From a virus (Duplodnaviria > Heunggongvirae > Uroviricota > Caudoviricetes), in IMG/VR virus record IMGVR_UViG_2718217859_000007: a stretch of 45,044 nt of DNA. One strand, given 5' to 3'. Positions 2,901-20,063 of this stretch are shown here, piece by piece. The translations under genes and the position numbers were made by a program. The notes under the pieces were generated by a model. The model was not told the origin of the DNA and did no database searches. It saw only the letters and a list, made by a program, of their open reading frames with translations. The first letter of the stretch is position 1. Each line of letters begins with the position of its first letter.

Positions 2901-3989
2901 TTAACCGTAATAATTGACACCTTTTTTATCCGCGTTCTTCTTCCCTGATGCCTGTCCTTTCGCGGAAATATCCGTGGTCAGCGACAGATTCAGCGAAAAT
3001 CCCTGCCCCGGTGCCAGTGAAAACTCCACCGATTCAGCCTGCCAGTAATGGTCCTCACGCACACCAAATCCCTGCGTGATAAAACGCACCTCCGCCCCCG
3101 CTTTCAGCAGTTCCGGTCTGCAGGGCAACGTTATCGTCATCTGGCGTCCGGCTTTCTGCACACGTTTAACCTTCGACTCTGCACAGTGTTTTGCGGTGCC
3201 CTGGTCAGGCTGGGTAAAGGGATGCCGCTTATCTGTTGACTCCACGTCAACTTTAACTTCACGTGTGCGTCCGTCACGGGCATCAAAATACCGGACACCC
3301 ACTTTCCCATCTTTCCCGCCACCCGCAGCGCCCTGTCGCTCACCTTCACGATAATCCCAGTCTGATACCATACCCGGCGTAATGGTTATCTCAGGGGCAT
3401 TTCTGCCCCCTGCACTCCGTGATGCCCCGTATTCCAGAAACAACCAGTAGCCACTGGTCGGTTTACTGGTGGCACCGTACATACCTGCAATGCGGGACAG
3501 GAGGGCTGCATCAGATTCTGATGACTGCATCACCCATGGGATATGAATACCAGCCAGCGCCGGTGATACCTGCGCCACCAGATTATTTTCAGTGGCGATG
3601 GTTTTTACCAGGTCTCCCAGCGAGATATCACTGAAAGCGCGGGTTTTCAGTGCGGTCACGTCCGCGCCATGTTTTGACGCATTCATGGGGGCTGCGGTGG
3701 CATAAATAGTGATCCGGCGGGGAGGGCCACCACTTGCCACCTGACAGACGGTAAAGCTGCCTTTATTTACCAGATTTCCGTTGAACCCCAGTCCCAGCGT
3801 TAGCACCGCGCCTTTCGGGGGCAACGCCAGCGTCTCACTGAACAGCGTTATCATCAGTTCATCGGACCGCTTTGTGCCAGCACCATTATCGGTATATCGC
3901 AGCTCAGCCAGACCTCGTTTTATTTCCTTCGTGATATCCTGACCTTCCGCTGTCAGACTGAAATCCGGCTGATACTCATTCACTCCCAT
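2901..3989 (-). CDS. tail protein, P2 gpD-like (late control D family)
   Basis: 362 aa ORF in the P2 gene-order position after U/X; family assignment by recall and synteny. Confidence 0.75.
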   Translation of the reverse strand: MGVNEYQPDFSLTAEGQDITKEIKRGLAELRYTDNGAGTKRSDELMITLFSETLALPPKGAVLTLGLGFNGNLVNKGSFTVCQVASGGPPRRITIYATAAPMNASKHGADVTALKTRAFSDISLGDLVKTIATENNLVAQVSPALAGIHIPWVMQSSESDAALLSRIAGMYGATSKPTSGYWLFLEYGASRSAGGRNAPEITITPGMVSDWDYREGERQGAAGGGKDGKVGVRYFDARDGRTREVKVDVESTDKRHPFTQPDQGTAKHCAESKVKRVQKAGRQMTITLPCRPELLKAGAEVRFITQGFGVREDHYWQAESVEFSLAPGQGFSLNLSLTTDISAKGQASGKKNADKKGVNYYG

Positions 3990-4198
3990 AACTGAAACGT
4001 CTCCTTCACTTCCGGTTCATATACCCAGTCCGGCAACACGATTTCCACTCCCGCCGGACAGACCGGACCAAGGTCAGCCAGCCCCGGATTAGCCTCCAGT
4101 ACCGCCGCCAGTGACTGGTTAAGCCCGGCACTGCCATAGTGCCTCTGACAGATGTCATCCAGCATATCGCCGTCAGTGGTCCGCCAGTTTTTCGCCAT
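3980..4198 (-). CDS. tail protein X (P2 gpX-like, LysM-type)
   Basis: 72 aa ORF between U-like and D-like genes, overlapping both; size and position typical of gpX. Confidence 0.65.
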   Translation of the reverse strand: MAKNWRTTDGDMLDDICQRHYGSAGLNQSLAAVLEANPGLADLGPVCPAGVEIVLPDWVYEPEVKETFQLWE

Positions 4199-4667
4199 AG
4201 TATTTCAGCTCCAGAGTGAACGTTTTATTCTTTGGCGCACCGCCGGGAAGAAAGGAGGTGGTGTTATCTGAATAGGCTGTTGCCACGAAATACCCCATCA
4301 CATCACCTGTGCCCGAGACCAGAAGATGCGGGGCCGGATTGTCATCCACCATCTGAACCAGTGTATCAAGGGCATCCATTCCCACACCGTCACGAAATCC
4401 CGCATGCACCATACCTTCAAAGGTTATCGTTCTGGCCCCCTTACCGGTATACTGCAGCAGGTCGTTTTTTCCGATAAGCTGTTGTTCATCCCACCGCCAT
4501 TCCATGGTGCGCTTCATGGCGTTATACGCTGCCGTATCGATACTGAATTCAAACTCACCAAACGACAGCATGACGCGGGAAGCCACCTCCGTTAATGAGC
4601 CCACTGCGTCCCATGCTTCGCGCTCAAGCCGGTTTACGCCCCAGCCCAGTAAATCCACCATCTTCAC
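4173..4667 (-). CDS. tail protein, P2 gpU-like
   Basis: 164 aa ORF directly downstream of the tape measure gene with 4-nt overlap; P2 order T-U-(X)-D. Confidence 0.7.
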   Translation of the reverse strand: MKMVDLLGWGVNRLEREAWDAVGSLTEVASRVMLSFGEFEFSIDTAAYNAMKRTMEWRWDEQQLIGKNDLLQYTGKGARTITFEGMVHAGFRDGVGMDALDTLVQMVDDNPAPHLLVSGTGDVMGYFVATAYSDNTTSFLPGGAPKNKTFTLELKYYGEKLADH

Positions 4668-18293: not shown

Positions 18294-19854
18294 CGCCTTT
18301 TTCTCCCGTTGTCTGTCGGATCTGCTGCTGAAACGTGTCCTTTATCCAGATGGGGCGGGGAAGACCCGCTGCCTGTCGCTCCTGGCTTTCACGCAGTTGC
18401 TGGCGGAAAATCTCCTGATAGTCATCGCCCATCAGGGCCAGCTCTTTCTCGTACGTGCTTAAACCACCTTCAATACGCATCACCGCTTCCTGCACTTCCT
18501 TAAGGCCATCAATCGCCATGCGACCGGCACCAATCCACTCGGCACGACACCATCCGGAACGGGCCTCCCAGAATGAAAAACGGGATTTCGGCGGACGGAT
18601 CACACCGCGAATAAGGGCTTCCTCCAGCCAGCAGGCAAACATCTGTGACGCCAGACGGCTGGCCACAAATTTTCGTTTCCCCATAAAATACCGCCACGAC
18701 TCATTGGCGGATGCCCTGGCACTGGAATAACTGACCTGTGAATAATCACGGGAAAGCTGTTCATAGGACACGCCCAGTCCGGCTGCGATGTAGCGTAACA
18801 GCGCCTTTTCCAGTTCAGAGAACCCATTATCCGCATTCTGTGCCGTCTGCAGATTCAGTGAATCCCCCGGATAGAGGTGCGGAATACGGACCCCGCCCAG
18901 CTTTACCGTATTGGTGGCGTAATAACGCGCATAGCCCTTCATAATGGTGTTCAGGGGATTTTTACCGCCGTCTCCCACCCCGGCGATATATTCAAATGCT
19001 TTTTCCGAATCCAGTGTGGATTCAATCGTCGCGGCATACATCGCCCGCACCACCGCCGACTGCAGTTGCGTGGCCTGCAGTGTGTCGAGCATCTTGAGAC
19101 GCTCCATGACAGAATAAAACTGGTTGGCCCCGCGCGTCTGCCCGTCCTCCTGCGGCTGAAACACATGGATCATTCCCGGTCGCCCGGAGGGCAGCGTCGC
19201 CGCAATCCGCATCCAGTTGCTGACACCATAACCGGGCCAGTCATCTTCCTGAACATGGTAGGCCAGTGCTTTTCCGTGCCGGTTGATTTCCACCCCGGCA
19301 CGCATAAAACGATCGCCGGTACCATAACCAGGCGTACTGACACGCTTCGGGCTGATGGTTTTGAATTTCGTTCTGAATAACGATGTGGATTCCGCATCCC
19401 AAACGGGCTGGACAAAAATTTCACCGTTAAACGTATGAACGCCCACCCCTTCACGAATGAATTCGGTAAACGAGCGACGCCCTTCCACATCCATCGAACC
19501 AAACACCGGATCACAGTATTCCATCCACGCCGCCTCAACATCTTCAATAAAGGCATGCGAATCTGCTTCCGACATCCCCAGCCAGCGCCAGTTGGGACGG
19601 TAACTCAGGCGAAACATGTGGCCGACGATATGATCTTTATGAATTTCCACGGCATTCGAAGCAATACCGTTATTGCGGACCAGATCATCCGCGCGGGCGT
19701 TTCCCAGTTGAATGGAGGGTAGCAGCGCCACATCAGCACTTTCGGGCGCGGGCAGCCATTCCGCAAGCTGCCCGCCAAATCCGGTACCACCACCGGAATA
19801 GCCCATACTCTGCCGAAGAGGCTGCCCATGAATATCCACCAGCACCCCGTTCAC
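18283..19854 (-). CDS. portal protein (lambda gpB-like)
   Basis: 523 aa, alignable with lambda B by recall (GGGTGFGGQL, NARADDLVRNNG, IHVFQPQEDGQTRGAN, NLQTAQNADNGFS, GRMAIDGLKEVQEAVM). Confidence 0.95.
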   Translation of the reverse strand: MNGVLVDIHGQPLRQSMGYSGGGTGFGGQLAEWLPAPESADVALLPSIQLGNARADDLVRNNGIASNAVEIHKDHIVGHMFRLSYRPNWRWLGMSEADSHAFIEDVEAAWMEYCDPVFGSMDVEGRRSFTEFIREGVGVHTFNGEIFVQPVWDAESTSLFRTKFKTISPKRVSTPGYGTGDRFMRAGVEINRHGKALAYHVQEDDWPGYGVSNWMRIAATLPSGRPGMIHVFQPQEDGQTRGANQFYSVMERLKMLDTLQATQLQSAVVRAMYAATIESTLDSEKAFEYIAGVGDGGKNPLNTIMKGYARYYATNTVKLGGVRIPHLYPGDSLNLQTAQNADNGFSELEKALLRYIAAGLGVSYEQLSRDYSQVSYSSARASANESWRYFMGKRKFVASRLASQMFACWLEEALIRGVIRPPKSRFSFWEARSGWCRAEWIGAGRMAIDGLKEVQEAVMRIEGGLSTYEKELALMGDDYQEIFRQQLRESQERQAAGLPRPIWIKDTFQQQIRQTTGEKGDAS

Positions 19855-20063
19855 AGTCCCACTCCTGCCGGACCACGGCGGCGTCCGGACACGCCAAGCG
19901 CACTTTCCATCTCTTCAATATATTGCCGCAGTTCACCGATTGTTGCCCGCGAATACTGGACCTGTCTGCCATCCTTGCTGACGGAAACCACAGCGCGTCC
20001 GATCATCAGTTCATGTAACGCCATGCGGGCATCGCAAAGCATCTCATGCGTATAAATCATCAC
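19851..20063 (-). CDS. head-tail joining protein (lambda gpW-like)
   Basis: 70 aa; ALHELMIG..V..DGR.V....IGEL..YIEE..RRRGPAG resembles lambda W. Confidence 0.85.
   Translation of the reverse strand: MMIYTHEMLCDARMALHELMIGRAVVSVSKDGRQVQYSRATIGELRQYIEEMESALGVSGRRRGPAGVGL

Follow-up and report, generated by a model that had tools for sequence, protein, structure and literature searches.

A lambda/phage 21-type head block joined to a P2-type contractile tail in a lambdoid prophage

We analyzed a 45,044-nucleotide stretch of viral DNA, IMG/VR record IMGVR_UViG_2718217859_000007 (hereafter the window), and found that on its minus strand a lambda/phage 21-type head block (Nu1, A, W, B, C, D, E, FI, FII) is joined directly to a tail block of the P2/R-pyocin type. 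Very probably, the window comes from a lambdoid temperate myovirus integrated in a chromosome like that of Escherichia coli, and holds its complete virion-assembly block. A family assignment was obtained for all 24 structural genes, nearly always from a strong match. Such a mosaic, with lambda-like head genes collinear with lambda and a P2-type contractile tail, had been proposed in a first-pass annotation, and Pfam, tblastn and PHROG matches confirm it. The range given there, 2901-20063, holds W through the tail gene D, but Nu1 and A lie outside it, at 20063-22498. The window also carries the hallmarks of a lambdoid phage, namely Q, RusA, DUF968, a P21-type holin, lysozyme, Rz, an integrase with an arm-binding domain and a helix-turn-helix repressor/cro pair.

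The head and tail blocks

All nine lambda head and packaging Pfam families scored above the cut-off and stand in lambda order (Table 1). Comparison by megablast showed that nucleotide identity to phage 21 is ~77% from Nu1 to the stop codon of E, where it ends. The window shares with the phage 21/lambda head module the collinear Nu1-A-W-B-C-D-E-FI-FII order, terminator-like hairpins at D|E and E|FI, and a 27-nt block of the cos region. In contrast, W, FI and FII are far more diverged, FII carries a C-terminal extension here, and the tail is not that of lambda. When the 12-nt cohesive-end sequence of lambda and phage 21 was sought near the 27-nt block upstream of Nu1, no match was found, and the cohesive ends probably differ from those of phage 21.

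Profile annotation of the tail genes gave P2-type contractile families and none from siphoviruses. Those P2 tail proteins that matched the window by tblastn did so with E values from 4e-4 to 5e-60, while R, S, E, T and Ogr of P2 gave no match in it. As in P2 and the R-type pyocin of Pseudomonas aeruginosa, the genes run V-W-J-I-H-G and then sheath-tube-E/E'-T-U-D, and the -1 frameshift site of E/E' is the same. This T TTT TTG heptamer, at 6476-6470, yields a fused product of 146 amino acids ending at the stop codon 6299-6297; P2, a Salmonella relative and a metagenomic relative (L007) all have the identical heptamer at the corresponding position. Homologues of R, S, Ogr, orf30 and fun(Z) of P2 were not detected in the window, which also lacks the head genes of P2 and separate Ogr-activated operons, and the proteins in common with P2 are only 22-51% identical. 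The first-pass annotation had described the second half of the tail as sheath-tube-E/E'-T-U-X-D in P2 order. The genes do exist in this order, but U-X-D is not that of P2, in which X is flanked by L and Y (in the P2 record, by L and the lysis genes). Having X between U and D is instead the arrangement of Wolbachia phage WO, Vibrio phage Valp1, Citrobacter phage Chris1 and Hafnia phage yong2.

Some further observations concern the tail proteins. The C-terminal part of the gpH-type fibre is ~91% identical at the nucleotide level to the phiP27 fibre. The gpV Apex motif is matched weakly at the C-terminus of V (E 0.0098), and the V|W gap (12480-12512) has no PAAR gene, unlike Valp1 and WO. A second fibre set lies downstream of gpD. 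Its Stf-like fibre is a 757-residue protein with a prophage tail fibre N-terminal domain and fibre repeats; the same pair of genes follows gpD in ETEC1746 and is interrupted by an IS66 element in RM9088.

Across the whole window, tblastn found neither lambda tail proteins nor P2 head proteins: phage 21 Z, U, V, G, H, M, L, K, I and J had no match at E<=0.01, apart from the N-terminus of Stf, and P2 Q, P, O, N, M and L had none. Neighboring structural genes overlap or lie at most 68 bp apart, and the sole larger gap, 117 bp from E to T, is occupied by E'. Head and tail form one contiguous module and not two neighboring elements.

The same layout is known from distant phages. Vibrio phage Vb_VaM_Valp1 (OR500391) has 18 homologues in the same order, with 29-50% amino-acid identity across head and tail, and its module reads TerS, TerL, gpW, portal, protease, small protein, E-type capsid, Hc1, Neck1/Z-like, terminator, V, W, J, I, fibre, sheath, tube, chaperone, T, U, X, D. 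It likewise encodes a Q-like antiterminator. Valp1 is a telomere-type temperate myovirus for which electron microscopy has shown a 60-nm head and a 90-nm contractile tail (PMC11054321). It differs in its protelomerase/linear-plasmid lifestyle, where the window encodes a lambda-type integrase, in its host genus, and in a PAAR gene and an extra open reading frame (ORF) between V and W; for D, FI and FII no similarity was detectable by tblastn.

In WO of Wolbachia (WOVitA1, KX522565), gpA, gpW, a lambda-family portal, gpC, D, a major capsid protein, a small ORF, a 'minor tail protein Z', a terminator homologue, V, W, J and I are present, and WORiC has sheath, tube, tape measure protein, U, X and D. 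We found homology to WO for A, B, C, the terminator, V, W, J and I, in the same order, the WO terminator homologue being 31% identical to a 188-residue protein of the window described below. WO differs from the window in its very distant sequences, a PAAR gene, tail genes separable from the baseplate genes, eukaryote-like ankyrin cargo and the lack of a lambdoid early region. A lambda-like head with a P2-like baseplate and tail has been described for WO phages, long regarded as lambda/P2 chimeras, and the same source names Xylella XfP1 and XfP2 as other cases (PMC3235987). VHML-type phages are noted for combining a P2-like tail with a genome that otherwise resembles lambda/N15 (PMC10612066). 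The collinear layout of the WO/Valp1 type, A-W-B-C-(D)-E-...-FII-Z-terminator-V-W-J-I...sheath-tube-chaperone-T-U-X-D, is thus present in the window, with homology on both sides.

Closer relatives were found in enterobacteria. Salmonella contigs contain the same module at 41-88% amino-acid identity, and at least 80% of it is held by 58 of 5426 complete E. coli genomes. The best E. coli match (98.3%) is RM9088, whose prophage lies near trp/ompW and carries subtilase toxin genes. No isolated-phage record held the whole module at the nucleotide level, and a literature search for the literal phrases 'lambda-like head' and 'P2-like tail' together returned no match. Since Vibrio Valp1, Wolbachia WO and Salmonella all have the complete layout, with both genes at the junction of head and tail, the lambda-head/P2-tail combination is ancient and recurrent and not a fresh lambda x P2 cross.

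Table 1. Features of the window. Identities are to phage 21 for head and packaging proteins and to P2 for tail proteins unless stated otherwise.
Feature	Position	Strand	Evidence	Amino-acid identity
pR'-like promoter, extended -10 (function inferred)	28930-28903	-	Consensus scan; immediately downstream of Q	
tR'-like hairpin and T run (function inferred)	28855-28836	-	Consensus scan	
Q antiterminator gene	28936-29757	-	PF03589 Antiterm E 1.7e-49; phrog_127 'anti-termination protein Q-like' E 3e-111	
cos-region block, 27 nt	22636-22661	-	blastn-short; 96% identical to phage 21 positions 25-51, between cosN and cosB R3	
Nu1, terminase small subunit	21950-22498	-	PF07471 E 8e-85	87%
gpA, terminase large subunit, split	20063-22020	-	Pfam GpA_ATPase and GpA_nuclease divided over two ORFs	87/67% (two ORF pieces)
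gpW, head-tail adaptor (Ad1)	19851-20063	-	PF02831 E 1.7e-24; phrog_75	47%
gpB, lambda-family portal	18283-19854	-	PF05136 E 3e-94	73%
gpC, S49 prohead protease/scaffold	16677-18293	-	PF01343 E 2e-33	60%
gpD, head decoration protein	16303-16638	-	PF02924 E 2e-23	74%
Terminator-like hairpin between D and E	16282-16258	-	Counterpart at same position in phage 21, Salmonella L008 and Valp1	
gpE, major capsid protein	15206-16234	-	PF03864 E 2e-67	82%
Terminator-like hairpin after capsid gene	15202-15182	-	Hairpin and T run, coding strand	
gpFI, packaging chaperone	14790-15158	-	PF14000 E 2e-13	41%
gpFII-family head-closure protein (Hc1)	14386-14793	-	PF05354 E 2e-12; phrog_82	28%
Putative gpZ-like tail-completion/Neck1 protein, 240 residues, Arg-rich insertion	13683-14405	-	phrog_27 'tail completion or Neck1' E 4.5e-26	
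Tail terminator/collar protein, 183-188 residues	13120-13671 (or to 13686)	-	phrog_1072, function unknown in PHROG	
gpV, baseplate spike	12513-13136	-	tblastn to P2 V E 5e-14; phrog_9992; below Pfam cut-off	26%
gpW/gp25, baseplate wedge	12123-12479	-	PF04965 E 3e-15	39%
gpJ, baseplate protein	11234-12148	-	PF04865 E 2e-22	41%
gpI, baseplate protein	10651-11241	-	PF09684 E 2e-36	36%
gpH-type tail fibre, collar-fibre N-terminus	9395-10654	-	PF12571 E 2e-14	
gpG, tail-fibre assembly protein	8841-9368	-	PF02413 E 1e-27	
Terminator-like hairpin immediately upstream of sheath gene	8822-8805	-	Position conserved in Salmonella, L007, Chris1 and Valp1	
Tail sheath	7311-8786	-	PF04984 and PF17482	35% (P2 FI); 62% yong2; 46% Valp1
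Tail tube	6796-7314	-	PF04985 E 2e-23	22%
Terminator-like hairpin after tube gene	6777-6760	-	Hairpin and T run, coding strand	
Tail assembly chaperones E (6434-6736) and E+E'	6297-6736	-	PF10109	
Tape measure protein T	4664-6316	-	phrog_3654 and several tape-measure PHROGs; position between chaperone and U	
gpU	4173-4667	-	PF06995 E 4e-28	33%
gpX	3980-4198	-	PF05489 E 6e-19	51%
gpD, baseplate hub/late control D	2901-3989	-	phrog_52 E 4e-94; tblastn to P2 D E 1e-31; below Pfam cut-off	39%
Second fibre set: Stf-like fibre (603-2876) and DUF4376 protein (1-603)	1-2876	-	PF08400 E 5e-55; PF14301; downstream of gpD	

The neck genes and the recombination joint

Two genes at 13120-14405, between FII and V, gave no direct Pfam match, and the first-pass annotation had regarded them as genes of unknown family that might be adaptors between the two systems. 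Our results place them in known neck families, the one putatively gpZ-like and the other a tail terminator; both belong to the tail block and lie off the seam. An exhaustive profile search with the 240-residue protein collected 184 family representatives, mostly of 180-200 amino acids and lacking the Arg-rich middle insertion. A direct Pfam scan of the close family returned one marginal match, whereas Minor_tail_Z (PF06763) was matched by 23 of 45 sampled distant members (best E 8.5e-10). Alignment of the 240-residue profile to the WO 'minor tail protein Z' by hhalign ran end to end (E 5e-4, probability 31%). Profile comparison of the family with phage 21 gpZ gave no signal, and a sequence search of the profiles against the PDB returned nothing meaningful. 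These matches suggest, with moderate confidence, that the protein is a gpZ-like tail-completion protein.

The second protein, of 183-188 residues, is a tail terminator. It has the terminator fold, that of a class with lambda gpU and the Mu terminator among its members, its gene stands just before the tail and baseplate genes, and its closest counterpart in both fold and profile is the pyocin R2 collar protein PA0615, which was matched by a profile of the 188-residue protein and eight relatives (E 1e-3). We also compared the two proteins with P2 gpR and gpS by profile, in both pairings, and found no similarity; the positions of R and S are taken here by the Z-like and PA0615-like proteins. With FII, the Z-like protein and the terminator recognized, the order of the three genes therefore mirrors FII-Z-U of lambda.

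Where the head block ends could be read from a natural exchange. Head and tail are like those of the window in 28 of 29 IMG/VR relatives; the exception is the contig L026 (1616-20546, corresponding to window positions 23000-5087), in which the head cassette has been swapped. L026 is 88.6% identical to the window upstream of Nu1 (23000-22643) and ~92% identical at the nucleotide level from 14466 onward, with a Chris1-type head in between that comprises a DUF1441 small terminase, gpA, a portal, a ClpP-capsid fusion and a cement protein. Within FII itself, residues 1-108 of the two proteins are ~33% identical and the last 27 residues (LARGEPGR.TPAAP.RPSKRYGSQRA) ~93%. The recombination joint is thus inside FII, near 14466. 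From this comparison it follows that the Z-like gene, the terminator gene and the C-terminal tail of FII belong to the tail block, and that the exchangeable unit is a head cassette running from Nu1 to FII residue ~108. The identities of FII to phage 21 (28%) and to Chris1 (30%) were too close to place it with head or tail, and L026 decided the matter.

Chris1 and yong2, like the metagenomic contig L007, share FII-family, Z-like, terminator and tail proteins with the window at 40-63% identity. In all three, as in L026, the head differs: C, D, E and FI are replaced by a ClpP-capsid fusion and a cement protein. In Chris1 and yong2 the genes from sheath to D are placed before W-J-I-H-G. A tentative idea, which we consider rather doubtful, is that the contractile tail keeps with it a portable docking cassette, made up of the C-terminal 27 residues of FII, the gpZ-like protein and the terminator. 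This cassette would let the tail accept two unrelated capsid systems, the lambda C/D/E type of the window and the ClpP-capsid fusion type of L026, Chris1 and yong2, and the conserved hairpins described below may be a shared transcript-dosage system surviving such swaps. If this were true, natural swaps with their joint near FII residue 108 would define the smallest determinant of head-tail compatibility.

Late transcription

The window encodes a Q-type antiterminator, located after RusA and DUF968 as is typical of a lambdoid nin region, and signals resembling pR' and tR' follow it. Downstream of Q, on one strand, come tRNA genes, a P21-type holin, lysozyme, Rz and the structural genes. The first-pass annotation had seen no Ogr/Delta-like activator, and none was found: real P2 Ogr had no tblastn match in the window (best E 0.46), and a scan of the window for the Ogr/Delta zinc-finger motif gave matches only in Q and gpA. 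Sites of the form TGT-N12-ACA numbered 4 against 4.9 expected, and none was intergenic. Since Q and pR'/tR'-like signals are present, while Ogr and Ogr-type sites are absent, late expression is most likely driven by Q antitermination and not by Ogr.

Dependence on Q rather than Ogr had previously been deduced from internal terminators at 8799-8821 and 15175-15200. Both correspond to genuine consensus matches (8822-8805 and 15202-15182), but there are four such hairpins on the coding strand and not two, and by themselves they do not imply Q dependence. Phage 21, a known Q-dependent siphovirus, also has the D|E and E|FI hairpins, so these structures do not discriminate between regulatory schemes. 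Salmonella, L007, Chris1 and Valp1 have T-run hairpins in the same three places, behind the capsid gene, directly ahead of the sheath gene and behind the tube gene, although the hairpin sequences differ. The four hairpins look functional and probably tune transcript levels, dosage or stability for the most abundant proteins (D, E and sheath-tube).

The surroundings of this region contain genes with other apparent roles. Between Q and the lysis genes, on the minus strand, lie tRNA-Gly and tRNA-Thr genes (27170-27323) and a 79-residue C-terminal DNA methylase fragment (27438-27677); the stretch also holds proteins of 239 and 180 amino acids with unknown function and a TerB-like protein. Between the lysis genes and Nu1, a plus-strand gene of low GC content (~0.40) at 23458-24075 encodes a histidine-phosphatase-family protein and looks like a moron. 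RM9088 instead has the subtilase cytotoxin genes (subAB), further upstream, between the Q-side genes and the holins.

Condition of this copy, origin of the block and proposed assembly

Alignment to RM9088 showed that gpA is cut into ORFs of 502 and 153 amino acids by a 1-bp deletion (T6 for T7) near 20524-20529, the break falling within the nuclease domain. All 22 fetched relatives with the same sequence context have T7 and none has T6, so the deletion is private to the window's copy and the relatives are intact. The T6 run reflects a sequencing error or else an inactivating mutation private to a defective prophage; unless the deletion is such an error, the copy as sequenced could not package DNA. 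We think it plausible, but lean slightly against it, that the design is intact and this copy defective, in which case lysis, tails and empty proheads would be possible and DNA packaging would be blocked by the truncated large terminase. The methylase gene fragment at 27438-27677 hints at some decay, in keeping with the split of gpA. Against this, homopolymer-length errors are common sequencing artefacts, every other structural gene is intact, and the near-identical IMG/VR contigs L012 and L013 (99-100% amino-acid identity) carry T7.

The similarity to phage 21 could be taken to mean that the block arose recently, when a lambda/phage 21-like siphovirus recombined once with a P2-like myovirus in E. 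coli, with the junction genes as newly recruited adaptors. That the ~77% identity of the head DNA stops exactly at the end of E, and that phage 21 identities of 60-87% in the head proteins give way to no match in the tail, would fit such a cross. The tail proteins, however, are only 22-51% identical to P2, whose R, S, E, T and Ogr are unmatched, the junction genes fall in known neck families, and the full layout with both of them is common to Valp1, WO and Salmonella; we therefore judge a recent one-off cross very unlikely. It is extremely improbable that the window instead holds two adjacent unrelated elements, a tail-less lambdoid remnant beside a P2-derived tailocin or cryptic P2 remnant. 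R-type tailocin clusters run from V to D with X between U and D, and the order of the tail genes here, the position of X and the PA0615-like collar gene resemble them; the frameshifted gpA could moreover mean that the head side is decaying. Yet this frameshift is private to the present copy, and an R-type tailocin is a tail cluster without head or packaging genes, while here the tail directly adjoins a full set of head and packaging genes. FII and the Z-like gene have 20 nt in common, the terminator gene and V 17 nt, and the two halves are not separated by an integrase, att site or regulatory gene. Valp1, Chris1 and yong2, all isolated phages, package the same fused arrangement.

Several points weigh against our interpretation of the window as the assembly block of a lambdoid myovirus. 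The prophage is known from its sequence, in which gpA is frameshifted. The promoter and the terminators were called from consensus matches only, and since a Q-type antiterminator should allow polymerase past the internal hairpins, their function is harder to account for. For the 240-residue protein, the structure model is poor (predicted local distance difference test score 61) and the fold search was uninformative, so that the gpZ link rests on profiles (the hhalign probability being the 31% given above).

On the interpretation of one lambdoid myovirus block, particles from this prophage would be expected to be contractile, and assembly may proceed as follows. The terminase (Nu1 and A) would package cos-ended DNA into a lambda/phage 21-type capsid of the portal B, the protease/scaffold C, D and E, with the assistance of FI, and the filled head would be closed by the gpW adaptor and the FII-family head-closure protein. 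The contractile tail would be built separately, from a baseplate of V, W, J, I and D with the fibre H and its chaperone G, tube and sheath polymerizing around the tape measure T with the chaperones E/E' and with U and X taking part. The tail would then be finished by the gpZ-like completion protein and capped by the terminator/collar protein, whose ring may serve as the docking surface for FII. All these genes could be expressed as one co-oriented late transcription unit, most likely from the pR'-like promoter by a Q-modified, terminator-resistant RNA polymerase, with the four conserved hairpins flanking D, E and sheath-tube probably acting on transcript levels or stability.

Phages that combine a lambda-type head with a P2-type tail are documented in Wolbachia and Xylella, Valp1 has the same layout, and the type is present in ~1% of complete E. 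coli genomes, so that nothing in the window is fundamentally new in kind. Two genes widely annotated as 'hypothetical' are given functions here, as a gpZ-like completion protein (putatively) and a tail terminator, and the boundary of the exchangeable module lies inside FII and not between genes. With the subtilase cytotoxin genes carried by RM9088, the particle type may bear on the mobility of toxin genes. Our data show that in lambdoid prophages of E. coli one contractile tail can receive different head cassettes, exchanged as a whole, which bears on the classification of prophages and on the engineering of chimeric phages and tailocins.

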